Of a DNA stretch of 64,000 bases, positions 2,419 through 37,341 are shown one piece after another; within the stretch, counting starts at the first letter, position 1; each line of letters starts with the position of its first letter. Source of the stretch: a virus; IMG/VR virus record IMGVR_UViG_3300017991_000009, positions 31,167 through 95,166 of that record, one strand, 5' to 3'. Below the pieces are notes generated by a model. The model was given only the letters and a program-made list of their open reading frames with translations. It was not told where the DNA came from and did not search any database. The position numbers were made by a program, and so were the translations under genes.

Positions 2419-2626
2419 TCGAACCAAGCTCATCGACGTGAGCGAGGAGATCGAGGTATCCCCAATTAGGCTGGCCGGTCAGGTTACCCGGTGGCAAGCA
2501 ATCGCTACTATCGATAAGGAGGCGGGTGACGATCATCTTGTCGGTGTTGGTTACCGGCCTGTTAAAGCAATCACTAGTTGGTTGGACGAAAAAGTTACGG
2601 CGAAGGTGCGATCATGCCTGCAGTGA
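2381..2626 (+). CDS. hypothetical protein
   Basis: GAGG RBS; fills the gap between flanking genes. Confidence 0.5.
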   Translation: MAKVKVVFQVWDDRTKLIDVSEEIEVSPIRLAGQVTRWQAIATIDKEAGDDHLVGVGYRPVKAITSWLDEKVTAKVRSCLQ

Positions 2627-3093
2627 GAATCAAGCATAGGGATGTCACCGCGGCCCGTGACCAACTCTACGACGAGATCTTGGATGAGGGGTGCTACTGC
2701 CCCTGCTGTGATCGGTACGCACGGGCCTACGCCAGGGCAATCAACCACACGATGGCGCGGGCTCTAATCTGGTTGTGCAGGGAGTACCGGCGCACGGGTG
2801 AATGGGTCGACGTGCCGAAGACCGCGCCGCGGTGGCTAGTTAGGTCCAACCAGCTTCCTACCTTGAAGTATTGGGGCTTGGTGCAGCGGAAGCCCAACAA
2901 CGACCCTGCCAAGAAGTGTAGTGGGCTATGGCGCCCTACTCCGCGTGGCCGCAGGTTCGCTGGGAGCAGGATCAGGCTGAGGAAGAAAGCATTGGTCTAC
3001 AACGATCGCGTGCTTGAGTACCAGGGAGAGTTTATCTCGGTTGTCGATGCACTTGCACACCACTTCGACTACCGCGAGTTGTGGGAGGGGTAG
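2614..3093 (+). CDS. phage winged-helix-like DNA-binding protein with CPCC motif
   Basis: CPCC...LKYWGLV...GLWRPTPRG pattern seen in phage wHTH-like proteins. Confidence 0.55.
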   Translation: MPAVRIKHRDVTAARDQLYDEILDEGCYCPCCDRYARAYARAINHTMARALIWLCREYRRTGEWVDVPKTAPRWLVRSNQLPTLKYWGLVQRKPNNDPAKKCSGLWRPTPRGRRFAGSRIRLRKKALVYNDRVLEYQGEFISVVDALAHHFDYRELWEG

Positions 3094-21147: not shown

Positions 21148-21575
21148 CCGATGAAGAGGACCTGTCGATTGAGCAAGTTGATCAAATCCTCCTCTCGTGG
21201 GGGATTGATCCTGTCGGCTTCAGGGAGTTCGCGAGAGAAGTGGTGGGACAAGAAGTGGCGCAACCTCTGCACGACAAGCCCTACACCCAACGAATCATCG
21301 CCCTGCGTGAGCGGGTTGACGTCCTCATCGGATGGCTCAAGAAGGCCGGGGCCAAACCGGAGGACCTCGCCTCTGTTTTGGAGGGAGTGATTAGTGGCCT
21401 CTACCAAGAAACCCACCAGTTTAGGGAAGGGCATAGCGCGAAAAGGAACCAGCAGGAAGGCGCCAAAGAGGTGCGTGAAGCAAAGCCCCGGCGCTTCTAC
21501 AGAGTTTGCCGAGCCGACCTCCAAGTCAAAGAAGCCCAAACGGCTCCTCCGTCCAAAAGGTTCAAGGGGCGGTAA
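21144..21575 (+). CDS. hypothetical protein
   Basis: TTG start overlapping the upstream TGA; 3' end overlaps terL. Confidence 0.4.
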   Translation: MTDEEDLSIEQVDQILLSWGIDPVGFREFAREVVGQEVAQPLHDKPYTQRIIALRERVDVLIGWLKKAGAKPEDLASVLEGVISGLYQETHQFREGHSAKRNQQEGAKEVREAKPRRFYRVCRADLQVKEAQTAPPSKRFKGR

Positions 21576-24000: not shown

Positions 24001-25671
24001 ATGACCACAAAACGCAAACGTGCTGCCCGCACGGCTAAAACCCCGGCGGACGCCGATCGTATCCAACTAGAGGCGATCGACAAGAAGGGGCAGCGGCGGT
24101 CGGTTACTCTGAAGGCCACGATAATTGACGGGCCCGAGGATGAGCCTCCGCGCCTGGACGAGGGGCCCACTAGCGCCGCTGACGAGCGAGACCCCTTCAA
24201 GAGCCAGTCGTTGGGTAAGCACCGCATCATTGATCCACCCTACAACCAGCGGAACCTCCTCACCCTGAAGGAGAAGTCCAACGTGTTAACGTCGTGCGTG
24301 AACAGCATGGTGACTAACACAGTGGGCTTTGGCTGGCGACTCAGGGAACGCATCATGCCCGATGATCTCCGGCGGAAGTTCGAGTCCGAGATCATACGGG
24401 AGAAAATGTCCCTCCTCACGTGGCTTGAATCGGTGCATCCTACCGAGTCGTTTACCGCGTTGCGTGAGCAGGCGAAGGATGACCAGCACTCCTGCGGCAA
24501 CGGTTACCTCGAGTTGATCGAGAATAAGGCAGGACGCCTGGTCGGACTGAACCACGTACACGGCCACTGCATCAGGTTGTGTGAACGGCAGAAACGCGCC
24601 GTGAAGGTAGACGTACCGCGCATCCGGCCGGATAAGAACTTCATGATCGAGGACGTCGCTATGTGGCACCGCTTCAGGAAGTTCGTCATGATGGTCGGCA
24701 CCAAGCCTCTCTTCTTTAAAGAGGCAGGCGATCCAAGGATGTTGGATCGCTACACCGGGGAGTACGGCAAGGACATCCCGTTCAACTGCCGCGCTACCTC
24801 ACTCCTCCACTTTAAGAACTACTTCGCGGCATATGCCTACGGCCTCCCTGTCTGGATCGGAGACACCCTCTCCGTAGTGGGGAGCCGCGAGGCGGAGGAA
24901 GTAAACTACGCCACTCTCCGCAACAACTCGATCCCATCGATGTTTGTCATAGTGGAGAACGGGTCACTTACCCAGGAATCGGTTGACCGCCTGCGGGAGT
25001 GGACGGAGCAGCAAATCCAGCGGTCGGCGAACCGATCGAAGTTCATCATCCTGGAGGGTGAGACTTCTGACGAGGGGATCATTAATCCCACCGACTTCAA
25101 GATCAAAGTCGAGCCCTTGAAGCAACTCCAGCAAGAGGACCAACTCTACCAGGAACTCGACAAGAACAACCGAGACAAGGTGCGGCAGGCTTTCCGTCTG
25201 CCGCCCATCTTTGTTGGTCGGGCCGACGACTACACTAGGGCCACGGCCGACACCAGCCGCGATATCGCAGACGAGCAGGTGTTTGCCCCGGAGCGGAACG
25301 GTGATGACTTCAAGACCAACCGCTTCATCCTCTTGCCCCTGGGTTCTCGGTTCCACGTGTTCCGATCGAACCATCCGAACATCACTGACGACATCGAGTT
25401 GATCCGCCTGATGGGCATCGCCGAGAAGTCTGGCGGTATGACCCCGCGGCGTGCCGACCGAATCATCCGTGATGTGTTCGGTGATGATATAGGGCCGATG
25501 CCCACCGGCATTGACCTGGACAAGCCCTTTACTATCACGTTCGCCGAGGCTCAGCAGGGCGGTACACTTGCGCAAGGCAACGCGAACGCAGACCGAGTTA
25601 TTGACGGCCTGCTCAACTTGCGTGAGAAGATAGAGGAGGAGCTTGAAGAAAGGTTGTACCACGAGGAGTAA
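24001..25671 (+). CDS. portal protein (PBSX/XkdE-like)
   Basis: IDPPY, GNGYLE, YGLP.W, AFRLPPIFVGRADDYTRATA, EQVFAPE motifs. Confidence 0.9.
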   Translation: MTTKRKRAARTAKTPADADRIQLEAIDKKGQRRSVTLKATIIDGPEDEPPRLDEGPTSAADERDPFKSQSLGKHRIIDPPYNQRNLLTLKEKSNVLTSCVNSMVTNTVGFGWRLRERIMPDDLRRKFESEIIREKMSLLTWLESVHPTESFTALREQAKDDQHSCGNGYLELIENKAGRLVGLNHVHGHCIRLCERQKRAVKVDVPRIRPDKNFMIEDVAMWHRFRKFVMMVGTKPLFFKEAGDPRMLDRYTGEYGKDIPFNCRATSLLHFKNYFAAYAYGLPVWIGDTLSVVGSREAEEVNYATLRNNSIPSMFVIVENGSLTQESVDRLREWTEQQIQRSANRSKFIILEGETSDEGIINPTDFKIKVEPLKQLQQEDQLYQELDKNNRDKVRQAFRLPPIFVGRADDYTRATADTSRDIADEQVFAPERNGDDFKTNRFILLPLGSRFHVFRSNHPNITDDIELIRLMGIAEKSGGMTPRRADRIIRDVFGDDIGPMPTGIDLDKPFTITFAEAQQGGTLAQGNANADRVIDGLLNLREKIEEELEERLYHEE

Positions 25672-25707: not shown

Positions 25708-26328
25708 ATGAGTAGCAAGATCGAAGTACACAAGGTGGAACTCGTCGATGGCGAGGAACTCATGCAGATGGTGGACAAGGTGATTGCCGCGGTCACCCAG
25801 TCCAAAGGCAAACTGAAGAAGTCGCTATCCCTGCGCGGCATCTTCAAGGACCACGTCGTGGTGCGGGACGCGGAGTCCGGCAAGATGTTCCGGATGAAGA
25901 TGACCCGCGACGACAAGGGCCAGGTCGCCCTGGAGGGGATGGAGGAAGTCAAGCAGGTATTTGTCCCGGTTAAGCAAAAGGCTGATGGCGCCGGTGATCA
26001 TACTTGTGTTTGTGCAAGTTGTGGTTATACGGAGCAGGCGAAAATAGGTGAGGAGTGTCGGGCAAAAACGTGCCCGAAGTGCGGCGCTAAGATGACAAAG
26101 GCGCCAGCTAAGAGTGGGGATAAAGATGAGGACAAAGACAAGAAGGGTAAAACGGAAAAGTCCGATACCCCTGCTGTCACACTTGTTGCAGTTGATGGTG
26201 ATGTCGTTGAGACCCCACTTAGCCCGCCTGAGATCCTCACCCTCCTGAAGTCGGCCTCCGACGAGCAGGGCGAGATGGTCGAGGTCAAGGTCGAGAAGTC
26301 CGACAGTATGTGGGCGGGGGTTATTTAG
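25708..26328 (+). CDS. putative internal head protein with an inserted zinc ribbon and a scaffold-like C-terminus
   Basis: CVCASCG...CPKCG; ends KSDSMWAGVI, resembling the scaffold end KQSMWSGII. Confidence 0.65.
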   Translation: MSSKIEVHKVELVDGEELMQMVDKVIAAVTQSKGKLKKSLSLRGIFKDHVVVRDAESGKMFRMKMTRDDKGQVALEGMEEVKQVFVPVKQKADGAGDHTCVCASCGYTEQAKIGEECRAKTCPKCGAKMTKAPAKSGDKDEDKDKKGKTEKSDTPAVTLVAVDGDVVETPLSPPEILTLLKSASDEQGEMVEVKVEKSDSMWAGVI

Positions 26329-26370: not shown

Positions 26371-27378
26371 GTGGTAGGTCTGAATCCCACAAACCTCACC
26401 ACCGAGGAGTTGTGTGACCTGGGGAGTGCAATTGACTCCACGTTGTGTGTCGTGCTCAAGGTCGCGCCTCGGAGGGAGTCTGAGATCATCGAAGGTCGAA
26501 TTGCCTCGACCATCGGTAGAGCTTGGAAGTCCACGGCGAATGCCGCGACCAACTCCGGCATAGCCAAACTCCTCAAGGGCCCTTTCACTGACCGGCGGAT
26601 CACCTCCTTCCTGAAGTCCTTGGGTGTGAAGCTGAAGACCCCCCTCACCAAGACCCAGATCAAGGTGATAGAGAAACGGCTCCAGTCTATCTGGAGGATC
26701 GCTAAGAAGTGGGCGGCGAAGGAGGCCAAGATCTCCTTCTCCTTCTCTCACGTTGATCAGCGAGCAGTCGCCGCGATCAACAGGCACCAGGTGTTCTGGG
26801 TAGGTGACTTCTACAACGACAAGTTGTCCCGCAGGATACGGGCCGTGTCTGAGGATGTCCTCCTTCGGCGCGGCCTCTCGCATAAAGAGGCGGGGGCGGT
26901 GCTAAGGAGAACTCTTCGCAGGGAGTTCGGTATCCTCCCTGGCGGTAAGACTAGGTTCGCGCCCACCGTCCCCGCTCGCTATGCGGGAAACCCCGATCTC
27001 TACTTCCGACAGGTAGCGTCAACCGCGGCGCACCAGTCGAGGACCTTCGGCACGTTGACCGCGTTCAGCGAGGCGGGGGTAACCAGCTACCAGCTTATCA
27101 ACCCGGATGACGAGCGTACCGGGCAGATCTGTCAACAGATGAGCGGGCAGGTTTTCTCCGTACAGACGGGGGTGCGGCAGATGAATCGCATCCTTGGAGC
27201 GAAGGACCCGAAGGACGTGAAGAAGATCGCCCCGTGGTTGTCAGGTGACGACATCGAGGCGGCCCTCGCGGGTGCACGCACAGGCAGCCAGCAGGCTACG
27301 GATAGGCTTGCCGCTGCAGGTGCGATCCTTCCGCCGTTCCACGCTTTGTGCAGGACAGATATTGTGATTCCGAGCTAG
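26371..27378 (+). CDS. head morphogenesis protein (Mu gpF / SPP1 gp7-like)
   Basis: DDERTGQIC...PPFHALCRT C-terminal motif; follows the portal. Confidence 0.8.
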   Translation: MVGLNPTNLTTEELCDLGSAIDSTLCVVLKVAPRRESEIIEGRIASTIGRAWKSTANAATNSGIAKLLKGPFTDRRITSFLKSLGVKLKTPLTKTQIKVIEKRLQSIWRIAKKWAAKEAKISFSFSHVDQRAVAAINRHQVFWVGDFYNDKLSRRIRAVSEDVLLRRGLSHKEAGAVLRRTLRREFGILPGGKTRFAPTVPARYAGNPDLYFRQVASTAAHQSRTFGTLTAFSEAGVTSYQLINPDDERTGQICQQMSGQVFSVQTGVRQMNRILGAKDPKDVKKIAPWLSGDDIEAALAGARTGSQQATDRLAAAGAILPPFHALCRTDIVIPS

Positions 27379-27380
27379 TC

Positions 27381-27722
27381 ATGAAGAAGCGGACTACGAT
27401 ACAAACTCTCATCTTTGACAAGGCAAAGTTTCCTACGAGGGACTCGGTACGTAAGTGGATCAAGGCTCATGGATTTCACATCATGCGCCAAAAGGAGAAA
27501 GTGACGAAGCCGGGTATTGACGAAACCGCTGGTAGCTTTAGAGTGCGCCAGAGGGCGCCTAGTGATTTCGTGCGAGGGTCGTTCAGAACGATTAATATTA
27601 CTGATGGAGTGAAAGCTGTTATCGGAAGGCTGAAGTCTAGCGTGAAGAAAACGGGCGTAGTACTTGAAGTAAAAGGCCCCTATGACTTGCTGGATATATT
27701 GGAGGAGTTATGTGGCGATTAG
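27381..27722 (+). CDS. small head-associated protein
   Basis: QTLIFDK..F...W...HGF...RVRQ..P..F..GSFRT..I..GVKAVIGRLK, recalled from phage head loci. Confidence 0.55.
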   Translation: MKKRTTIQTLIFDKAKFPTRDSVRKWIKAHGFHIMRQKEKVTKPGIDETAGSFRVRQRAPSDFVRGSFRTINITDGVKAVIGRLKSSVKKTGVVLEVKGPYDLLDILEELCGD

Positions 27723-28075
27723 AGAAAGCGTTCAAATTTGAGGCAGCACATTCCCTGCCTTATCACCGTGGTAAGTGTAAGCGGGTACACGGCCACTCTT
27801 GGCATGGGAAGGTAGTCCTTGAGCGTAACGATCTTACCGAGGATGGCCCCGAGGCGGGAATGGTCACTGACTTTGGGAAGGTAAAGGAGGTGATTGACCA
27901 GGTGTTAGACCAGTACCTCGATCACCTGTTCCTCAACGAATCTACTGGGATGCGCAACCCCACCTCGGAGCTACTTGCGAAGTGGCTCTACGATCACTTG
28001 AAGGTTCGCCTGCCGTACCTCGCGGCGATCGTCATCCAGGAGACGGACTCGAGCACCTGCGAGTACCGACCGTAG
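27710..28075 (+). CDS. queD: 6-carboxy-5,6,7,8-tetrahydropterin synthase
   Basis: FEAAH, CKRVHGHSW, LDH..LN, PTSE.LA, ET motifs. Confidence 0.92.
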   Translation: MWRLEKAFKFEAAHSLPYHRGKCKRVHGHSWHGKVVLERNDLTEDGPEAGMVTDFGKVKEVIDQVLDQYLDHLFLNESTGMRNPTSELLAKWLYDHLKVRLPYLAAIVIQETDSSTCEYRP

Positions 28076-28078
28076 GCG

Positions 28079-28681
28079 ATGCTGGGGAAGAGGTACATAG
28101 TCAAGGAGATCTTCTACTCCCTACAGGGAGAGGGGATGCGTGCAGGCGAGGCTAGTGTTTTTGTCCGCTTCGCTGGTTGTAACCTTAACTGTAGGAAGGA
28201 GACGCATGGTTTCGACTGTGACACCGACTTCAAGGGCGGTGTGAAACTGACCGCGGAAGGGGTACTCGAGGCAATCAAGAACGTCAACGAGCACTGTCGC
28301 TGGATCGTGCTGACCGGCGGGGAGCCCGCCGTGCAGTTGGATTCGGCACTCGTTTCTGTTCTGAAGGCCGCTGGCTATAGCCTGGCGATCGAAACCAATG
28401 GTACAAAGGCCTTGCCCGAGGGGCTTGACTGGATATCAGTTTCGCCGAAGCCCGGTACCTGCCTGGAGCAAACGAGAGCGATGGAGGTGAAATATGTCCT
28501 ACGTGCTGGTGACCTTTTGCCTACGCGGTCAGAGATTAAGGCCGCTTACTATCTATTGAGCCCCGCCTTTGAGGGAAACACTCTGCCCCAGGATAACCTG
28601 CGGCACTGCATCAACCTCTGCCTGGGTAACCCCAAGTGGATCCTTTCTGTCCAACTACACAAGCTAATAGGTGTGAGATGA
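28079..28681 (+). CDS. queE: 7-carboxy-7-deazaguanine synthase (radical SAM)
   Basis: EIFYSLQGEG, FVRFAGCNL, CDTDF, TGGEP, ETNG, VSPK, QLHK. Confidence 0.92.
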   Translation: MLGKRYIVKEIFYSLQGEGMRAGEASVFVRFAGCNLNCRKETHGFDCDTDFKGGVKLTAEGVLEAIKNVNEHCRWIVLTGGEPAVQLDSALVSVLKAAGYSLAIETNGTKALPEGLDWISVSPKPGTCLEQTRAMEVKYVLRAGDLLPTRSEIKAAYYLLSPAFEGNTLPQDNLRHCINLCLGNPKWILSVQLHKLIGVR

Positions 28682-29235
28682 GTGAAGATCTAGTACGAGA
28701 GATGATTCTAGCGATTGGTGACGACCCCGACCGAGAAGGTCTGAAGGAAACACCCAAGCGGGTGGTGAAGTCGTGGGCTGAGTTGTACTCAGGCTACAAC
28801 GCGGATGCGGCTGAGTACTGCAAGGTGTTCTCCGCGACCTATGATCAAGTAGTGGTGTTCAAGGACATCGACTACTTTTCAATGTGCGAACACCACATGC
28901 TGCCTTTCTTCGGGAAGGTGTATATCGCCTACTTGCCTGCAACCAACGGCAAGCAGGGGGCCAAGGTGATCGGGGCGTCTAAGATGGCCCGAATCGTGAA
29001 CGTGTTTGCACGCAGGTTGCAGATACAGGAGCAGATGACTCAACAGGTCGCGGAAGCGATCCAGGAGATGATTCACCCGAGGGGGTTGGCAGTCATCGTG
29101 GATGGGATGCACCTTTGCATGATGGCAAGAGGCGTGAGTCAGCAACACGCCACGATGCGAACCAGTGCCATGTGGGGCCTCTATCGAGAGGACCACAGGG
29201 CGCAGGCTGAAGCCCTTCGGTTGATGGGGTTTTAG
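28678..29235 (+). CDS. folE: GTP cyclohydrolase I
   Basis: REGLKETPKRV, SMCEHHMLPF, SKMAR, RRLQIQE, HLCMMARG. Confidence 0.95.
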   Translation: MSEDLVREMILAIGDDPDREGLKETPKRVVKSWAELYSGYNADAAEYCKVFSATYDQVVVFKDIDYFSMCEHHMLPFFGKVYIAYLPATNGKQGAKVIGASKMARIVNVFARRLQIQEQMTQQVAEAIQEMIHPRGLAVIVDGMHLCMMARGVSQQHATMRTSAMWGLYREDHRAQAEALRLMGF

Positions 29236-29236
29236 G

Positions 29237-29980
29237 ATGCCAAAGATCATCCTTGCCCCGCACCTAGATGACGAGGTGATCGGCTGCTACTCCATCCTCG
29301 GAGAAGTGGACCGAATCGTGTACTTCACAAGCGACTATCGTGAAGAGAACCTGCCCGATGATCGCTACGAGAAGTTCAAGGGCACACTGCCCCACGGCAT
29401 TGCTGAGGCCGACACGGTATTCCTCCCAAGCAGGTTCGACCACCATCCCTTTCACCGATATGTCCGCAACGTCGGGCTCGGGCTTCCTGGGATCAAGTGG
29501 TTCTATAGCGTTGAAATGAACGTACCGTGGTTAGAAGAGGAAGCGGACCCTGACGGGAAGTGGGCCATGATGGAACGGCTTTACCCGCAGGAGGTACCAC
29601 GGCTCGTTGATCATAAGTATCGGCTGTTCAAGAGTATCAAGCCGTTCGACGAAGTGATCCGGGCTAGCGTGAAGATCGTCATTGAAAGGTGGCACCGCTG
29701 GCCCGCTGCACCGGAGAAGGTCGCGTTCTTGCGCAACCTCCACCGCCACTTGTTCCACGTCAACGTGCGCGTTCAGCAGTTCCAAGACGACCGCGACCTT
29801 GAATACTTCCTGTTGAGGGAAGAGGTGGGAGAGATTGTCAACGGGTTCAAGTGGGAAGAACGCACCAGTTGTGAAATGCTAGCCCTTAGCGTAAAGCGAA
29901 CATTGGAAATGAGGTACCTCGACCGAATGGTTCAGGTATCAGTCTATGAGGACAACGAAAACGGATGCGAGGTGGAGTGA
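29237..29980 (+). CDS. PIG-L/LmbE-type deacetylase fused to a DpdL-like (QueD-like T-fold) domain
   Basis: N-terminal APHLDDEVIG and DHHPFH; C-terminal HRWP.AP...LRNLHRHLF (LxxxHRHxF), DRDLEY, SCEM, EDNENG. Confidence 0.75.
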   Translation: MPKIILAPHLDDEVIGCYSILGEVDRIVYFTSDYREENLPDDRYEKFKGTLPHGIAEADTVFLPSRFDHHPFHRYVRNVGLGLPGIKWFYSVEMNVPWLEEEADPDGKWAMMERLYPQEVPRLVDHKYRLFKSIKPFDEVIRASVKIVIERWHRWPAAPEKVAFLRNLHRHLFHVNVRVQQFQDDRDLEYFLLREEVGEIVNGFKWEERTSCEMLALSVKRTLEMRYLDRMVQVSVYEDNENGCEVE

Positions 29981-30714
29981 TGAAACACGTAGGCGAAAAC
30001 AAACACGTAGGCGAAAACATCGTCGATATAGCCAATGAGGGCCGCAAGCTCAACCTGTTTCAGGTTGAGGTAACCAACATATGCAACGGCAAGTGTGAAT
30101 ACTGCCCACAGTCGACAATGAAACGAAAGGCGGGGTATATCTCGCCTATGGTGTACCGCTCGGCGCTTCACGCAATGGAGAACGACGCCTTCCACCTGCA
30201 TGGGCACGGGGAAACCTTGATGCACAAGCAGGTGGTTGAGATGGTGGACCTTGCCACCAGCTTGGGTAAGGAGGTCGGGTTTTCAACCAACGGCTCCCTT
30301 CTCACGCAGGAGAAACTCGATGCGTTGGCCCAGGCCGGGTTGAAGTGGCTCCGTCTGCACGTCGGCCCGTTCGGTGTGCGGCTCAACCAGTTCAAGGTAC
30401 CCGAAGGCTTGATCGCCACCGAGCACCGGGTGGGCGATAACGGTCCCGAGGAGGTTGAGGACAAAGGGATGACTTCGTGGGGTGGTTGGGTGGATGGTGT
30501 CGAGGAAACAGGAGGGGCTGACCGCTGCTCCTTTTTAGGGTACCCCAACGGCAAGGAGTGGCGGTGCTTGCTCTACGACGGAACGGTAACTTTGTGTTGC
30601 GTTGACTACGAAGGTGGTGCTACACAAAGTGACATCTGTAGCAAGTGCCGTGGGTTTGTTTTCAGGAGCCCTCGCGATTGGGGAAACTATGACGGCGAAG
30701 GCTGGGAATTCTAG
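29980..30714 (+). CDS. radical SAM protein with a SPASM/twitch-like C-terminus
   Basis: CNGKCEYC, GHGETL, STNG, C...DGTVTLCC.D...CSKC. Confidence 0.85.
   Translation: MKHVGENKHVGENIVDIANEGRKLNLFQVEVTNICNGKCEYCPQSTMKRKAGYISPMVYRSALHAMENDAFHLHGHGETLMHKQVVEMVDLATSLGKEVGFSTNGSLLTQEKLDALAQAGLKWLRLHVGPFGVRLNQFKVPEGLIATEHRVGDNGPEEVEDKGMTSWGGWVDGVEETGGADRCSFLGYPNGKEWRCLLYDGTVTLCCVDYEGGATQSDICSKCRGFVFRSPRDWGNYDGEGWEF
29983..30018 (+). repeat. 18-bp in-frame tandem duplication
   Basis: AAACACGTAGGCGAAAAC x2 (KHVGEN KHVGEN). Confidence 0.9.
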
Positions 30715-30723
30715 GAGCGAATC

Positions 30724-31164
30724 ATGAATACGAAAGTGCAAGCGGCAAAGCATGTGATTGCGGACGCGATAGCGAAACACGATCACCGAATCTACGTGGC
30801 GTACTCAGGCGGCAAGGACAGCCAGGCTCTCCTGCGGTTGGTGCGCTCGGTCAACCCCCACGCCCTGGTCGTGCACAATGGCTACGAGGGTGAATCGGTC
30901 GAAGACGAGTTCGGCATCTTGAAGGTCAAGCCCCCCAAGGCAGAGACCGTGCCGAAGTTCATGGAGGCGGTTGACCTTGGTGCGCAGTTCGATGCAACGC
31001 GCCGCGCCGAGAACAAGCTGGTGTGTATCGACGGCAAGGAGATCCACCGCAGCAACATGACCGGCCCCTACACCGCAAAAGGTTACTTCGGGCTGGAAGT
31101 CTACTTCCCTCTCTGGGACTGGTCAGACGAGGAAGTGCTGACCTTCTTGGAGGTGAGCGAATGA
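30724..31164 (+). CDS. compact PP-loop protein, PAPS-reductase-like (adenine nucleotide alpha-hydrolase fold)
   Basis: AYSGGKDS, TRRAE, PLWDWSDEEV; only 146 aa. Confidence 0.75.
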   Translation: MNTKVQAAKHVIADAIAKHDHRIYVAYSGGKDSQALLRLVRSVNPHALVVHNGYEGESVEDEFGILKVKPPKAETVPKFMEAVDLGAQFDATRRAENKLVCIDGKEIHRSNMTGPYTAKGYFGLEVYFPLWDWSDEEVLTFLEVSE

Positions 31165-31691
31165 AGGTTGACCGCTGCCACTACAGTTATGACGGCGAGG
31201 GAGATCTAATCGGTACCAAGACCTTCTTTTGTCACTACCCAGGTGAGACCTCAATCGAGCAGTTTGACTTGAGCAAGGTAGGGGCGGTCTTTGTCAATAC
31301 GGACACCCTTGACGAGACCCTTGGAGGGTGGATCGACCGTTGCGGTAAGATAGTGACGGTTGAGGTAGACGGGGAGGTGTTGAACACGACGCCCGCCGTA
31401 ACCATCGACCTTGATGGTGCGAGGCTGTTCGTTGTCGTGGATCGCTTTTTCCCGCACCTCGTCAACTTCACTGGGTTCGTAAAGGTTAGAGTAATGGCCG
31501 AAGCTAACCTCCCTGAGTGCTTGAGGCTGGCAAATACCTACGCGATGCAAGGGCGGCAAGTCCTCCTGATGCCCGAGTTTACTGACATCGGGCACAAGGA
31601 GGTAGGTGAGGTCATGATGGGGATCTACGATGAGGTCCACCCGCTGGTGCGGGTCATGCCTCCAGTTCAGTTCCTCTTGGGGGTGAAGTGA
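31161..31691 (+). CDS. degenerate QueE/NrdG-like protein lacking the Fe-S cysteines
   Basis: SYDGEG..IG..TFF, VTVEVDG, VLLMPE and RVMPPVQFLLGVK echo QueE segments; no CxxxCxxC. Confidence 0.5.
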   Translation: MKVDRCHYSYDGEGDLIGTKTFFCHYPGETSIEQFDLSKVGAVFVNTDTLDETLGGWIDRCGKIVTVEVDGEVLNTTPAVTIDLDGARLFVVVDRFFPHLVNFTGFVKVRVMAEANLPECLRLANTYAMQGRQVLLMPEFTDIGHKEVGEVMMGIYDEVHPLVRVMPPVQFLLGVK

Positions 31692-32758
31692 TGCTCTACT
31701 ATCTGCCTATCGAACCGCTTGAGGAGAGGTACACCGAGCAGTGGTATCGGTGGTTCCCGGAAGAGTTCAAGCGGCAAGGGATTCGCTACCAGACTATCGA
31801 CGGGGAGACCCTCGTTGATGAGGTTCAGGTAGGGACGTTTCTGGACGTGAACTCAACGCTCTATTACAAGGCAGAGCAACTCAGGCGTGTCGCCAAACTC
31901 TTTCACCATGGGTTGATCGAGAGTGGTGACAAGTTCTTTGTGGCGGATGTCGAGTTTTGGGGTATCGAAAGTATCAGGTACCTCGCCACCCTCAACAAGG
32001 TGGACGTGGGGATCCTCGGGTTCTGTCACGCAGGGAGTTACACGGTTGAGGATTTCATGGAACCGTGCGCACCCTTCGCTCACCACTACGAGACCGCTTG
32101 GGGATCGGTCTTTGATATGATCTTCGTTGGGAGCGAGTACCATAAGCGTATGCTGGTGGAAAAGCGGAAGCTGCCCGCTGACAAGCTCATGGTTACCGGC
32201 AACCCCTACGATGCGTCAGAAGTGCCTAAGCTGAACCTCCCTGTGAACCACACACGGGTCATCCTCACCAATCGCCCTGACCCTGAGAAACGTCCCGAGG
32301 TCACACTGAAGGTTTTCGCTCAACTTAAGAAACAACACCCCTCTTGGGACTTTCTGGTGACCACTGGCCGCAAACAGTGGGGCTCGGGTGCCGTTAGAAA
32401 CACCGCCCTTGCCCTGCGGGACCAGGGTGTGATCACCATTCACGAAGGTATCTCAAAAGGCGAGTACCTCGAACTGCTAGCAAGTAGCCGCGTCATGACA
32501 GGGAACACCATTGAGGAGAACTTCGGGTATTGCGTCCTGGAGGCCCTTTTGGTTGACACCATCCCTGTTGTGCCGAACGACTTTAGCCACCCTGAACTAC
32601 TCCAGAATGACGAAAGGTGCCTCTTTGACACTACAGGTCGTCAGATGACCTTGATCGAACGTGCAATAGAGGATCCTTTTTCCGTTCTAGGGTATAGTAA
32701 GCGGTACGAGGATTCGCTTGCGGCGATAGTGCTAAGTATCAAGGAGGGCCGACCATGA
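31691..32758 (+). CDS. GT-B (GT4-like) glycosyltransferase
   Basis: EPLEERYTEQW, HAGSY, R.DPEK.P, EENFGYCVLEA (Ex7E), PVVP. Confidence 0.85.
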   Translation: MLYYLPIEPLEERYTEQWYRWFPEEFKRQGIRYQTIDGETLVDEVQVGTFLDVNSTLYYKAEQLRRVAKLFHHGLIESGDKFFVADVEFWGIESIRYLATLNKVDVGILGFCHAGSYTVEDFMEPCAPFAHHYETAWGSVFDMIFVGSEYHKRMLVEKRKLPADKLMVTGNPYDASEVPKLNLPVNHTRVILTNRPDPEKRPEVTLKVFAQLKKQHPSWDFLVTTGRKQWGSGAVRNTALALRDQGVITIHEGISKGEYLELLASSRVMTGNTIEENFGYCVLEALLVDTIPVVPNDFSHPELLQNDERCLFDTTGRQMTLIERAIEDPFSVLGYSKRYEDSLAAIVLSIKEGRP

Positions 32759-33861
32759 AGTTTTATTTCGTAGCAGGAGCTAACGACTCCGTGAACGTAC
32801 TGTTGGACGAAAAGGTCCGGTCTATCCTCGTGTCCTTCGCCCACTTCAAGAAAAAGTTGCCCGACAGATTGGTTGCAGCGGCCAAGAAAGGCACGATCCA
32901 CCTGATGTTGGATTCAGGTGCATTCACCAACGCAACCAAGCCTGGGCACGTCACCCTTCCTGAGTACATTGACTTCGTGAAATCTCACAAGTCGTTGCTC
33001 ACGGAGTACGTGACCCTTGACGACTTGAAAGCCCGCAGCACCACGGTCAAGAACCTTGCAAAGATACGCGAGGCGGGTCTTGACCCTATGCTGGTTGACC
33101 ATATGTGGTTCCCTTGGTTCGAGAAGTTCCTCGGCCCTGAGTACAAGAAGGGAAAGAAGGTATGCTGGGGAGGCTTGGTATCGCTTGCCCAGAAGCCCTC
33201 GACCACTGACGCCGCAGCCGCGAACATGAACCTCAACGTCCTCGGCAAGAGGATGAAGGAGCGTGGAAGCAGAGCAAGGGCGAAGCCTGTTTCCTCTGTC
33301 CACCTTCTTGGTGTTGGTCAACGCATCAAAGCGTTTCTCGGGTTCTTTGATGTTGTGGACTCAGTTGACTCCACGACTTGGAGGATCGCTGCCCAGAAGT
33401 TCGGTCGGGTCGCGTGGGTAAGCCGCGACGACCAGGGGTGGCCGAAACTTCACACGCCTCACCACACCGAGATACCCGACAAACTGAAAGCCAAACTCAA
33501 GCAACAGGGCTTTGACATATCGAGCCCGAAAGACCGTGACCGCATTGCTATCCGTGCCTTCAAACTCTTTTTCAAGATGGTGGAGGAGCGGTATCAGAAG
33601 GCGAAGCAAGCCGGTGAGGAGATCGCCCAGGTCGCCAAGTCTGAACTCCTGATCAAGGATTCGGAGGCGGTGCCTTCTGGGGACATCATTGAGGTGCTCA
33701 CCTCTGAGTTACCAGAGGATGAAATGATTGCCCTGGTTGGGGACCTTTCGCAGGACCTCAACCCAGAGGACATCAACCCGCCTCTACTGAAAGAAGTCTC
33801 CGACGCCGAGCTACTCCACCTTCACAGGCAACTGCACGGGCTAGGAGGTTCCCATGCCTAG
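32755..33861 (+). CDS. DpdA/TGT-like base-exchange transglycosylase with a C-terminal extension
   Basis: LDSGAFT, VTLDD, WGGLV, VHLLG, SVDSTTW; no Zn-binding CxCxxC; adjacent to deazaguanine genes. Confidence 0.8.
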   Translation: MKFYFVAGANDSVNVLLDEKVRSILVSFAHFKKKLPDRLVAAAKKGTIHLMLDSGAFTNATKPGHVTLPEYIDFVKSHKSLLTEYVTLDDLKARSTTVKNLAKIREAGLDPMLVDHMWFPWFEKFLGPEYKKGKKVCWGGLVSLAQKPSTTDAAAANMNLNVLGKRMKERGSRARAKPVSSVHLLGVGQRIKAFLGFFDVVDSVDSTTWRIAAQKFGRVAWVSRDDQGWPKLHTPHHTEIPDKLKAKLKQQGFDISSPKDRDRIAIRAFKLFFKMVEERYQKAKQAGEEIAQVAKSELLIKDSEAVPSGDIIEVLTSELPEDEMIALVGDLSQDLNPEDINPPLLKEVSDAELLHLHRQLHGLGGSHA

Positions 33862-34843
33862 TGAAGTGATGAGCACTCAGGAGGAGTCGCGAATCAGTGC
33901 CCACCTCCTTGTCGTTCAGGAGATGGTGAGGCGCGGCTTTAGTCACGACACGGTTGACGGGGTAGACGAAGCTACTCAGGCCATGGGTTGCGCTATTGGC
34001 CTGAAAGGTGACGAGCTTGAGTTGCTGGGGCTCACCAAAGCTGCCTTGAGCAAGCAGGTACCGCAGAAAGACGCACCGATGGAGGACAAGCGGAAGGCCC
34101 AGAAGGCAAGGGCTGCCCGGTTCGGCATCGAGGCGCTGGAAGGGAGAGGCGAAAGGCTGTCGTTCCCTGCGGGGTACCCCACAGACTTGAACCTCTACGG
34201 CGACCCGGTGAACCTGATGTTCCCGCTAGACCCAGCGGGGAGGGCTCGCAACGCCCGAGCCAGGTTCAAGCAGTTCGCTGACGACATCTACGAGCAGGAC
34301 AAGTCAAAGCGAATCGTGCACACGCGAATCGTGAAACGCCTCCTGTCTCTAGGGTCTGTACCTTCCTTTGATGAGGACGACCCGCTCGACAAACTGCTAC
34401 CACCTGACGTTCGTAGGCGGTTGCAGAAGTCAGTCATCGAGGTTGACCTTGACGATGACGACACCGAGGTCAACGAGGTCACCCTCATTGCAAAGGCCAC
34501 CGACGACGAACGGCACATTGTACTCGGCGTGGTGCTCGAACCTGACTCAGTTGATACACAGGGAGACACCATCAAGGCCGACGAAATCGAGCGTGCCGCC
34601 CACTTGTGGCTTGCAAGGTTTCAGGATCGCGGACTTATGCACCGCAGGATCGTGAACTCCAAGATCGAGATCTACGAGTCCTACCTTGCACCTGTGAACT
34701 TGACCTTGGGAGGGCAAAAGGTTAAAAAGGGCACTTGGTTACTCATGTACCATGTCCTTGACGACGCCCTCTGGAAGGACATCAAGAGTGGGAAGATCGC
34801 CGGGTTCAGCATGGGCGGATTTGCTAGAAGGGTCAAACTTTGA
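33854..34843 (+). CDS. XkdF-like prohead serine protease with N-terminal accessory (DUF6582-like) domains
   Basis: IVLGVVLEPD..DTQGD, MH, ESYLAP, KKGTWL, WKDIKSGKIAGFSMGG; YGDPVNLMFPLD...RNA upstream. Confidence 0.85.
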   Translation: MPSEVMSTQEESRISAHLLVVQEMVRRGFSHDTVDGVDEATQAMGCAIGLKGDELELLGLTKAALSKQVPQKDAPMEDKRKAQKARAARFGIEALEGRGERLSFPAGYPTDLNLYGDPVNLMFPLDPAGRARNARARFKQFADDIYEQDKSKRIVHTRIVKRLLSLGSVPSFDEDDPLDKLLPPDVRRRLQKSVIEVDLDDDDTEVNEVTLIAKATDDERHIVLGVVLEPDSVDTQGDTIKADEIERAAHLWLARFQDRGLMHRRIVNSKIEIYESYLAPVNLTLGGQKVKKGTWLLMYHVLDDALWKDIKSGKIAGFSMGGFARRVKL

Positions 34844-34872: not shown

Positions 34873-36102
34873 ATGCCAAGTACCAAACAACCTAACGCAG
34901 AGGCGAGACTGGAAGACCTGGACGTCAGGGAGGTCTCAGTGGTAGATCGTCCTGCGAACAAGAGAAAGTTCCTGATCGTCAAAAGCGTAGACGGTCTGGA
35001 AGTCATCAGAATGGAGGAAGGTATGCCCAGGAACGCAATCCCAGCAAATCGCGCCGAAGAGATGGGTTTCGTTCCCGTTCCTGTTCAAGACGAGCCGGCT
35101 CCGGTGGCCAAGGAAGAGGACACCGATGACAGCCTTCTCGATCTGTTCGGGTTTGGGGACGACTTGGACCCCGAGAACCCGGACGTAGTGGACGATGGTG
35201 ACGATGACGGTGAGGTCGTGATCGTCACCAAGGGTGTGAAGGCAATGGCTCTCAAGGAGACTAACGCGGCCCTTCAGAATATGATGAAGGTGACCAACAC
35301 CCTGAGGGGCCTCGCGGAGAAGTCGGGCGAGGTATCCAAGGAAGTCGCCGCGCAGTTCGGCCAGATTTCCGAAGCTATCACCGCCACGCTGGCCAAGATG
35401 GGGGAGAAGGGTGGAGACGGAGACGACAAGGACGCCGCGCATAAGGCCGCAGACGCCGCGGCGGTTTTCGCCGCCTGTAAGGCCACGGTCGAACGCCTCA
35501 TGGCCTGCGTGAACAAGATCAAGGCGCTGGACGACAACGCGGAGGAGATTCCCGCGGACGTCAAGGCTGACCTGGCCAAGATCGCGAAGGCTCTGGGCAT
35601 CATGGCCCAAAAGTTTGGCGGAGCAGGCGACACCCAGGACGACAAGGGTGACGACCAGGCCGACAAGGGCAAGGCCCAGAAGCGTGAAGGCCTAGAGATC
35701 TTCCTCAAGCATGGCTCTGACGGCGACGACCCCGAGGTTATCCTCAAGGCGGGGGCGAAGATGCGCCGGGCCCGGCTCAGCAAGCTGAAGGCGGCGATCA
35801 AGGCACTCAACGAGGTTCTGATCGAACTCGACCCGTCCGAGAAGCTGGATGACGATGATGGCAAGGACGACAAGAAGGGCAAGAAGAAGCCTGCCAAGAA
35901 GTCTGAAGGCCCCAGTCTGGGCGAGAAGCTGGTAGGGGCCATCACGACCCTCACCGAGAAGGTAGATGGTCTGGGCACTCAGGTCCAGGACATCACCAAG
36001 CGGGTAGGGGAGATGGAGGACACCCGCCCCGCAGGCGCAACCAACGATGACCCACCTGCCGAGGTTCAGAAGAAACAAAGCATGTGGAGCGGCATAATTT
36101 AA
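34873..36102 (+). CDS. capsid scaffolding protein with an N-terminal protease strand motif
   Basis: LDVREVSVVDRPAN...KS, then acidic/helical repeats; directly upstream of the MCP. Confidence 0.75.
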   Translation: MPSTKQPNAEARLEDLDVREVSVVDRPANKRKFLIVKSVDGLEVIRMEEGMPRNAIPANRAEEMGFVPVPVQDEPAPVAKEEDTDDSLLDLFGFGDDLDPENPDVVDDGDDDGEVVIVTKGVKAMALKETNAALQNMMKVTNTLRGLAEKSGEVSKEVAAQFGQISEAITATLAKMGEKGGDGDDKDAAHKAADAAAVFAACKATVERLMACVNKIKALDDNAEEIPADVKADLAKIAKALGIMAQKFGGAGDTQDDKGDDQADKGKAQKREGLEIFLKHGSDGDDPEVILKAGAKMRRARLSKLKAAIKALNEVLIELDPSEKLDDDDGKDDKKGKKKPAKKSEGPSLGEKLVGAITTLTEKVDGLGTQVQDITKRVGEMEDTRPAGATNDDPPAEVQKKQSMWSGII

Positions 36103-36144: not shown

Positions 36145-37341
36145 ATGACAAACCAGGAAGCCATCAACAAGGCGACTATCGTGACCGATGCCATGGCCAA
36201 CGCCGGACTGCTAAACGCCGAGCAGTCCAACAAGCTCATCGACTATGTGGTCGACGAGACGTCCATGAAGGATCGGGTGCGGATAGTCAGGTTCAACGCC
36301 AACCAGCGACTGATCGAGAAGATCAACGTCGCCAACCGAGTCGCGGTCCCGAAGGAAGAGGCTGCCGACCCGCGTGTCCGCAGGGGTGTGAGTACCGACA
36401 AGGTTACCTTGACCCATGCGGAGATCATGGTGCCGTTCGAGATCGGTGACCTCGTAGGAGAAGAGGGTATCGAGGGCGACGATATCTACGACCATGTGGT
36501 CAGGATGATGGGCAAGCGGCTCGCCAACAACGTGGAGGAGGTCTGGTGGGACGGGAACACCGTTGGCCCCGCTCAGACCGAAGAGTTCATGCTGGAGGGC
36601 GGCAACGCCAACCTCTACATGAAGGACTCCTACCTAGCCCTCTTCAACGGCTGGTTGAAGCTAGCCGAGTCGGGCCACATCGTGGACGCCGCCGGCGCAT
36701 CCTTCGGCCCCGCCCTGCTCAGCCGGGCGATCAACGCCATGCCCAGGAAGTTCCGCAAGAACAAGAACCTCCTGAAGTGGCTCATCGCCTCCGACTTCGA
36801 GCAGGTTTACCGCGACCAGATCTCTGGCCGCGGCACCGCAGAGGGTGATAAGGCACTGTTTGCCACCGGGAACCTCCCCGGCTACGGCATTGAACTCGTG
36901 CCGGTTGCCCTGCTGGACGACCAGCCTTTGTACGTCGAGGACAGTGTGGCGAACACGGACGGCACCACCGCGACCCCCGTCAGTTACGGCCCGCTCACCG
37001 AGTTGGTCCTCACCGTCCAGACGTTGGGCTCCGCCCCGATGGCCAAGTACATCCTGGCCACCGACTACACCGTGGACGAGACCAATGGTACCTGGACCCG
37101 CCTCGGTGGCGGCTCTATCGGCTCGGGCGCGACCATCAAGGCGACGTATCGCACAGGCGGCAAGGTGTTACTGACCAACCCGCAGAACCTGATCGCCGCG
37201 ATCGGCCGGGAGATCCGGATCGAGAAGCAGCGGAACATCTTCAAGGGTACCTGGGAGTACGCGATCACCGCTAAGATCGGTTGCCAGATCGAGGAAACCG
37301 ACGCCTGCGTGATGATCACGAACATCGCCCCGCCCGAGTAG
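36145..37341 (+). CDS. major capsid protein (HK97 fold, XkdG-like) with an inserted beta domain
   Basis: GLLNAEQS..LID, IEG, GNT...NGWLK, MPRKFR, TNPQNLI..I.REIRIE; strong RBS. Confidence 0.9.
   Translation: MTNQEAINKATIVTDAMANAGLLNAEQSNKLIDYVVDETSMKDRVRIVRFNANQRLIEKINVANRVAVPKEEAADPRVRRGVSTDKVTLTHAEIMVPFEIGDLVGEEGIEGDDIYDHVVRMMGKRLANNVEEVWWDGNTVGPAQTEEFMLEGGNANLYMKDSYLALFNGWLKLAESGHIVDAAGASFGPALLSRAINAMPRKFRKNKNLLKWLIASDFEQVYRDQISGRGTAEGDKALFATGNLPGYGIELVPVALLDDQPLYVEDSVANTDGTTATPVSYGPLTELVLTVQTLGSAPMAKYILATDYTVDETNGTWTRLGGGSIGSGATIKATYRTGGKVLLTNPQNLIAAIGREIRIEKQRNIFKGTWEYAITAKIGCQIEETDACVMITNIAPPE

Follow-up and report, generated by a model that had tools for sequence, protein, structure and literature searches.

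A predicted DpdA-like enzyme and an XkdF prohead protease, fused in related phages and encoded by two overlapping genes in a 95-kb viral genome

The DNA analysed here (the window) is a 64,000-nucleotide stretch, positions 31,167 to 95,166, forming the final 64 kb of the 95,166-bp IMG/VR virus record IMGVR_UViG_3300017991_000009, which bears direct terminal repeats and comes from an uncultured phage. Within its head-gene module lie two overlapping open reading frames (ORFs) on the + strand, the strand that carries nearly every gene of the window. ORF A (32755-33861, 368 aa) encodes a predicted DpdA-like enzyme of the tRNA-guanine transglycosylase (TGT) type followed by a C-terminal tail, and ORF B (33854-34843, 329 aa) encodes a prohead protease of the XkdF family. 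ORF A and ORF B are probably the two halves of a gene that is single in related phages and occupies the protease slot; in the window, this gene would have been split in the loop of a His-rich helical module, and its parts would be produced by coupled translation. The enzyme–protease fusions found in dozens of related phages suggest that the protease may take DNA-modifying enzymes with it into the capsid.

Two genes and their single-gene relatives

The first 299 residues of ORF A (32755-33651, +) form a TGT-like barrel, as judged from an AlphaFold (AF2) model, structure matches in the Protein Data Bank (PDB) and motif conservation in 43 relatives. The model, built from these 43 relatives, has a predicted local distance difference test score (pLDDT) above 95 for aa 1-295 and is disordered from about residue 300 onward, save for a helix at 350-362; the acidic linker at aa 300-349 (33652-33801, +; pLDDT 36-50) is predicted to be disordered. 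ORF A matches phrog_887, annotated as 'queuine tRNA-ribosyltransferase', at 1.4e-19, and the best 50 PDB structure matches of the barrel are all TGT or ArcTGT entries, with E-values from 2.6e-7 (e.g., 1iq8) to 8e-6 and TM-scores of 0.42-0.49.

ORF B begins with helix 2 and the rest of the His module, continues through a middle domain (34076-34453, +; KRKAQKARAARFGIEAL..YGDPVNLMFPL) that is common to other proteases and scaffold-like proteins, and ends with the XkdF (Peptidase_S78_2) protease domain at aa 209-327 (34478-34834, +), which scores 92 bits against Pfam PF14550, for which the cut-off is 24. The 208-aa N-terminal extension that precedes XkdF here reaches up to about 1650 aa of enzymes in relatives. 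H263 and S319 of the protease domain are invariant in 40 sequences and are assumed, by analogy, to be catalytic. The 95-kb genome encodes no second XkdF domain, and nothing in it scored above the cut-off for HK97-type proteases (Peptidase_S78). Structural comparison by VIA-align was carried out on the XkdF domain of a relative, L014, and not on ORF B itself; it superposes on T4 gp21 (5jbl) with Z 8.0 and an rmsd of 3.3 over 110 residues, the next unrelated structure having Z 5.7 and the varicella-zoster virus protease Z 4.8. A Foldseek search of the L014 model spanning the His module and XkdF against the PDB returned nothing at E-values up to 0.001. The middle domain itself recurs in at least 50 relatives, many of which are scaffold-like proteins starting with an EVSVVDRPA motif, and some of which are Mu-I-like proteins without XkdF.

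Protein searches recovered ORF A homologues that carry PF14550 in the same chain (P0002, 481 aa; P0003, 579 aa), and two viral contigs, L002 and L003, encode the barrel, linker and XkdF in single ORFs of 644 and 714 aa, flanked on one side by deazaguanine genes and on the other by those for scaffold and capsid. In the L002 fusion, aa 5-227 align to ORF A aa 1-228, and aa 382-644 to ORF B aa 17-329. In a profile search of 1.84 billion cluster representatives (50%-identity clusters) with the fusion as query, 54 of the best 150 representatives combined a TGT-like domain with XkdF in one protein of 422-1780 aa, with XkdF always at the extreme C-terminus. A metagenome scan added 10 further fused loci among the nearest relatives of the enzyme, some metagenome loci being the same contig present in two collections. 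Approached from the capsid protein, 79 of 80 viral loci hold a single XkdF gene that precedes those for scaffold and capsid, with a product of between 126 aa, where a contig end truncates it, and 1766 aa. Among the 11 loci with at least 60% capsid identity, XkdF is fused to TGT in seven, preceded by the His module without TGT in three, and joined to Dam in one. The split gene of the window was seen in no other locus, whether among the 80 capsid-found loci, including the 11 closest, or among the fused and metagenome relatives.

The barrel is one of several enzymes found in this position. Long TGT..XkdF proteins also include an ATP-dependent DNA ligase (in 10 of 34) as well as Dam and other methyltransferases, and capsid-related phages without the barrel carry, in the same N-terminal slot, a D12 Dam methylase, a C5 cytosine methylase with a ligase, an S-adenosylmethionine (SAM) methyltransferase with a ligase, or an InPase. 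The fusion partner of the enzyme is always the prohead protease, always at the C-terminus, and no other late protein. In terms of gene architecture, the N-terminal position of the protease is thus a putative cargo slot for DNA enzymes.

The element that connects enzyme and protease is a His-rich module in which helix 1 (consensus ..ELLALHKRLH..) is joined to helix 2 (consensus ..HLLVVQE(L/M)xKRGMxH..LD) by a loop of about 9-25 residues. The module precedes XkdF in many proteins, some with the barrel and some lacking it. In the window, helix 1 (DAELLHLHRQLH; aa 350-361; 33802-33837, +) is located at the C-terminus of ORF A, and helix 2 with the helices that follow (..SAHLLVVQEMVRRGFSH..GLKGDELELLGL; 33884-34051, +) at aa 11-66 of ORF B, where it aligns with the L002 fusion from aa 382 onward. 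A hidden Markov model (HMM) of the module gave 71 matches over the gathered sequences, 60 of them spanning both helices, and most of the other 11 hold both helices when inspected by eye. Only ORF B of the window, P0077 and ORFs in L101 and L083 have no evident helix 1, and P0077 is the sole other protease found to start right at helix 2; P0067 and P0156, the nearest architectural twins of ORF B, possess both. ORF B matches the helix-2 half of the module HMM at 1e-8. An HMM of helix 1 alone scores 14.1 bits on the tail of ORF A, a value reached by one of 2000 shuffles and the best of 505 frames in the window.

Structure models, which were read for confidence and secondary structure only and not for contacts, agree with a two-helix unit. 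In an AF2 model of L014 fusion aa 340-593, helices 40-52 and 55-74 have pLDDT of about 90 and form a hairpin, which superposes on the helical hairpin of ribosomal protein L29 with an rmsd of 1.5 over 48 residues (VIA-align); structure matches of the helical module are generic helical ones only. In the model of ORF A alone, helix 1 has a pLDDT of about 57. Because the module is one folded unit in relatives, the gene boundary in the window cuts the loop between its helices and not a domain border. Fused homologues are common, the two half-motifs join in one module in homologues, and ORF A and ORF B share a common origin with the single-chain enzyme–protease proteins.

An earlier sequence-only reading of this DNA had called ORF A TGT-like and ORF B XkdF-like, had proposed that the enzyme belongs, or once belonged, to a head polyprotein, and had described the His-rich motif as continuous elsewhere and split here. 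Both family assignments are borne out by the phrog_887, TGT-structure and PF14550 matches. The search that it suggested for TGT and XkdF domains in one ORF showed such proteins to be abundant, both among the cluster representatives and among the phages with the closest capsids, in line with the polyprotein proposal; the HMM matches across both helices and the L014 hairpin substantiate the continuous motif.

The protease as a possible carrier of the enzyme

Prohead proteases of the gp21/assemblin fold (T4 gp21, HK97 gp4 and the herpesvirus assemblins) act inside the procapsid, and a partner fused to the N-terminus of such a protease would therefore be carried inside and could be cut free. The fused gene encodes, in order, a DpdA-like enzyme, an acidic disordered linker, the His module, variable middle domains and a C-terminal XkdF protease of the gp21/assemblin fold, and it occupies the protease slot of a head module that runs portal, MuF, protease, scaffold and capsid protein. 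In the proposed mechanism, the protease domain would carry the enzyme into the procapsid and then cut it free, and the freed enzyme would work on the genome inside the head or close to it, or exit with the DNA. That the fused relatives belong, by analogy, to the 'polyvalent' class, with the protease loading and freeing an enzyme that acts at the head or leaves with the DNA, is the reading that is moderately favoured here. A candidate processing site, QVAK|SE (K295/S296; 33637-33642, +), stands at the end of the last helix of the barrel. In roughly half of the listed fused relatives, as read by eye, a similar hydrophobic-x-K-(S/D/E)-acidic motif stands at the equivalent place; the motif is compatible with cleavage and shows nothing more.

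In the phage of the window, the enzyme might still dock on the protease, with helices 1 and 2 re-forming the hairpin in trans, or ORF A might now be a free late enzyme, and these two possibilities are about evenly balanced. An equally even choice applies to helix 1 on ORF A, which may serve to re-form the hairpin in trans or may be the leftover of a recent one-base insertion rescued by a ribosome-binding site (RBS) and an ATG. A complex prediction for ORF B aa 1-100 with ORF A aa 296-368 scored 0.16 against a mark of 0.32, which is uninformative either way on binding.

The strongest rival, appreciably less probable and still carrying real weight, holds that the enzyme is not a capsid component: the fusion would provide late equimolar co-expression, or the enzyme would be released outside the shell, modification would take place on replicated DNA in the cytoplasm, as has been proposed for DpdAs already characterised, and the split would have freed the enzyme again. 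About 60 more distant relatives of the enzyme (25-30% identity) are free-standing proteins of about 300 aa beside FolE/QueE genes, with no XkdF or other protease nearby. The split phage persists across samples of 2018 and 2021, and the papers on phage DpdA enzymes conclude that deazaguanine insertion is post-replicative (PMC6884629; PMC10516641). Against this rival, the fusion partner is constant, a prohead protease at the C-terminus and never another late protein; relatives carry Dam, Dcm and ligase in this slot; and the break does not coincide with a domain border, since helix 1, which belongs to the module of the protease, has stayed with the enzyme.

Several considerations weigh against the reading of ORF A and ORF B as a divided loading system. 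Encapsidation, cleavage at Lys|Ser and enzymatic activity are all predictions from sequence. The free-standing distant relatives imply that the enzyme can work untethered. The split may be a recent one-base accident rescued by a chance RBS and ATG, in which case the kept helix 1 would be meaningless; the four assemblies that cover the junction are identical, so that selection on it is not measurable, and contigs mask rare variants of the junction. In addition, the prohead protease of a model phage undergoes self-digestion and exits the head, so that a cargo role is not automatic.

Polyvalent proteins with a C-terminal assemblin-like peptidase are a published class (Iyer, Burroughs, Anand, de Souza and Aravind 2017, PMC5512222). 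Like its members, the proteins discussed here are large and multidomain, are encoded among virion genes, include DNA-acting enzyme domains and always have the head protease at the C-terminus; in relatives of the locus, the protein that ends in the protease also contains Dam, Dcm, DNA ligase and InPase domains. The class joins at least two effector domains to the peptidase in one polypeptide, which is what the relatives have, whereas the window encodes enzyme and peptidase as two genes; by its gene structure, the window locus is best described as a split derivative of the polyvalent class and not as a strict member. The terms TGT, queuine and deazaguanine do not occur in the main text of PMC5512222, and DpdA-like cargo is therefore not among the polyvalent domains described in that text.

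Phage DNA guanine transglycosylases are known as DpdA1-4 (Hutinet 2019, PMC6884629; NAR 2023, PMC10516641). ORF A shares with them a TGT-type barrel, conserved Asp motifs and adjoining FolE, QueD and QueE genes. Unlike them, it has no sequence match to deposited phages or to Pfam TGT, and the enzyme is fused to the prohead protease (in relatives) or split from it (in the window), inside the head module. No such enzyme–protease or enzyme–capsid arrangement appears in the text of PMC6884629 or PMC10516641 under protease, capsid or fusion terms, and a full-text literature search combining DpdA with 'prohead protease' found nothing related. The locus gives the DpdA-like enzyme a new genomic and probably physical setting, with a natural split through the connecting module in the window. 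The enzyme would be a new cargo class for protease-terminated polyvalent proteins, for which the general idea is already published.

The anti-restriction Dar system of phage P1 and the T4 Alt/internal proteins use separate targeting sequences or partner proteins, and are not known to be fused to a prohead protease. As in the model considered here for the cargo, P1 DarB/Dar and T4 Alt/internal proteins are enzymes that are loaded into the head and processed by a protease (PMC5512222); this likeness is one of loading model. With other XkdF/Peptidase_S78_2 proteases, such as the 150-aa gene product of Pseudomonas phage PPSC2, encoded between the terminase and capsid genes, the window protease shares the Pfam family, the place in the head module and the invariant His and Ser, and it differs from such bare forms by its N-terminal extension.

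A broader proposal, which is speculative and rather doubtful, would make the XkdF protease the general loader of enzymes for DNA modification and repair, namely DpdA-like transglycosylase, Dam, Dcm and ligase, into the procapsid in a clade of ~95-kb phages, with the genome hypermodified or sealed inside, or the enzymes ejected; in the window, the tether would be the split hairpin, possibly metal-bridged via four conserved histidines. At present, 7-deazaguanine modification in phages is attributed to free enzymes that act once the DNA has been replicated, and the widespread fusion, in a slot shared with Dam, Dcm and ligase, points to a possible place and time of action in or at the capsid. The natural split offers a ready test of whether a short helical module suffices to load foreign cargo into a capsid, and loading of this kind, if true, would be useful for phage or capsid nanocontainer engineering.

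The chemistry of the barrel and the reading of the junction

The barrel of ORF A is, by sequence and model, a DpdA-like (TGT-fold) enzyme linked to 7-deazaguanine synthesis, for which guanine exchange in DNA is predicted. FolE, QueD and QueE adjoin the TGT–XkdF gene in 18 of 20 loci, as against one of 15 XkdF loci with other or no cargo, and the barrel is therefore tied to deazaguanine chemistry. Its motifs LDSGAFTN (D53), LDD (D89), VDH (114-116), H183 and DSVDS (D205) are invariant or nearly so across the 43 relatives, in which S54, G55, H183 and D205 are invariant and D53, D89 and S203 are at least 90% conserved. The conserved Asp residues are presumed to correspond to the catalytic Asps of TGT, on the basis of motif likeness and not of superposition. 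Searches of BFVD returned phage queuine tRNA-ribosyltransferases as the top structure matches (best E 2.9e-12). Among viral proteins, those closest in fold to ORF A include ones from Vibrio phage nt-1 and Cellulophaga phage phiST, two phages that the literature names in connection with DpdA2 and DpdA3 (PMC6884629; PMC10516641); as to the DpdA1-4 subfamilies, ORF A shows this fold-level likeness and no tblastn match.

It is improbable that the N-terminal domain is not a DNA transglycosylase and instead acts on tRNA, or is a dead barrel kept as structural or DNA-binding cargo. This alternative draws on the lack of any match of ORF A in Pfam (including PF01702 TGT), NCBIfam, the PADLOC Dpd models or PDB sequences, and of any tblastn match at E 1e-5 among 50,697 phage records, against which blastn of the ORF A/B region likewise found none; the TM-scores to TGT structures are also low. 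The Zn-binding Cys/His subdomain of tRNA TGTs is absent from ORF A, which has a single Cys (VCWGG) and no CxCxxC cluster; its absence counts in favour of this alternative, and is at the same time among the reasons why ORF A is not filed as a tRNA TGT. The conservation of DSG, DS.D(S/T), H183 and D89, the tight link to FolE/QueD/QueE and the nt-1 and phiST folds argue for the predicted transglycosylase. Elsewhere in the window, a Pfam TGT match at 2653-2751 (15.8 bits, E 2.9e-4; Zn-motif region) falls in a Cys-rich 171-aa ORF (2578-3093, +; CYCPCC) and was judged to be probably due to chance.

At the junction, which reads CTA GGA GGT TCC CAT GCC TAG, the two ORFs share 8 nt (ATGCCTAG), an overlap that takes in both the ORF B ATG at 33854 and the ORF A stop codon. 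ORF B is read in the +1 frame. The ORF B frame is closed by a TAG at 33842-33844 and hence open from 33845 on, which leaves, as read from the sequence, a 14-nt stretch (33845-33858, +) in which both frames are open. A Shine-Dalgarno (SD) sequence, AGGAGG (33843-33848, +), stands 5 nt before the ORF B ATG, and the same type of site is found at ORF A, the major capsid protein and other genes. The sequence-only reading had given these ORF coordinates, junction letters, frame relation and opening position, together with the QVAK|S codons at 33637-33642, and all were confirmed in the sequence. Its remark that GGAGG is equally a good RBS for the second ORF holds, the spacing resembling that of the other strong RBSs of the phage. 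Separate, coupled translation is supported by this spacing, by the absence of a slippery codon and by the absence of any such site in relatives, and the pair is read from the sequence as two proteins made by coupled translation and not by frameshifting.

A programmed +1 ribosomal frameshift in 33845-33858, which would yield some covalent ORF A–ORF B fusion beside the separate products and which the earlier reading had offered as its weaker option, is very unlikely. The frame of ORF B, the 14 nt of double opening that end at a stop codon, and the need of the relatives for a fused form favour it, as does the upstream AGGAGG. The prfB frameshift site likewise has an SD-like sequence upstream, at a spacing of 3 nt. 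In the window, AGGAGG is 1 or 7 nt from the candidate peptidyl-site (P-site) codons instead, and no slippery site was found in the 14-nt stretch, where a +1 shift leaves no codon able to re-pair (both TCC to CCC and GCC to CCU give mismatches). The relatives are all fused in frame and have no frameshift-type site.

Least probable of all is the reading that the split stems from faulty assembly or sequencing, or from a defective minority variant, the living phage having one fused gene: every close relative with the enzyme is fused, and one base less in 33845-33858 (e.g., in CCC at 33851-33853) would give a single ORF with a 21-residue loop, inside the family range, yet Logan contigs assembled separately from four runs of four studies (sediment 2018 and seawater 2021) span the junction without a single difference or gap, at contig level, two of the runs being possibly the window's own source and contigs dropping rare variants. 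These agreeing contigs, which bear at contig level on the earlier call for an indel check of this stretch, and a longest homopolymer at the junction of CCC make an assembly error unlikely, and ORF B has a full RBS and ATG.

Gene neighbourhood and minor observations

The head module runs in the order terminase (start at 21394, from family scans), portal (24001-25671, +), a 206-aa Zn-ribbon protein (25708-26328, +) and a MuF-like minor head protein (26371-27378, +), the three at its upstream end, a small ORF, QueD, QueE and FolE for 7-deazaguanine precursor synthesis (27710-29235, +), four tailoring-type genes, ORF A, ORF B, a scaffold-like protein (34873-36102, +) and the major capsid protein (36145-37341, +; phrog_1623), which is 64% identical to the capsid protein of L002. 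The deazaguanine cluster as a whole thus lies inside the head module, immediately upstream of the protease. Family scans found QueD, QueE and FolE and no QueC-type match in the window. The four tailoring-type genes between FolE and ORF A (29237-32758, +) are a PIG-L-like::T-fold ORF at 29237, a second radical-SAM enzyme, a PP-loop protein and a glycosyltransferase. Of these four, the PIG-L-like::T-fold ORF and the glycosyltransferase are met again, beside FolE/QueE and a TGT-like gene, at no fewer than 18 other loci, some fused and some free, and this QueC-less cluster looks like a widespread variant pathway. In L002, a LAGLIDADG homing-endonuclease gene (L002:8137-8661, -) is located between QueE and FolE.

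A 124-aa ORF of the head module (27348-27722, +) is a stand-alone copy of the domain found between the His module and XkdF in the L002, L003 and L015 fusions, with the motif TIQTLIFDK..F...ET..SFR.RQ..P..F..GSFRTI...GVKAV.G.LK; head-internal domains seem to move between genes of their own and the N-terminal extension of the protease. The N-terminus of the scaffold-like protein (34906-34989, +; LEDLDVREVSVVDRPANKRKFLIVKS) corresponds to the opening 30 positions in the protease profile phrog_3017 and gives a weak Pfam Peptidase_S78 match of 11 bits, below the cut-off; in other phages, the equivalent strand stands directly before the XkdF domain. The C-terminal ends of the Zn-ribbon protein (..SDSMWAGVI), the scaffold-like protein (..KKQSMWSGII) and the L002 scaffold (..RQSMWGNV..) are alike, and an SMW-type C-terminus may be a common tag of head-internal proteins.

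Variation in the number and form of the barrels was also seen among the relatives: P0008, a 1464-aa fusion, contains two TGT-like barrels, L091 encodes two tandem free barrels, and one giant fusion contains an intein and a LAGLIDADG domain. 'DNA methyltransferase' labels on XkdF genes of cultured phages were considered as evidence of fusion and set aside as unreliable, the PPSC2 gene being only 150 aa long. That gene (L006:3370-3822) encodes a bare XkdF protease in the canonical slot under the label 'putative methyltransferase', and other cultured phages in the table of XkdF-domain matches bear the same product name. The methyltransferase name on bare XkdF genes looks like a label that has spread from the fused forms.

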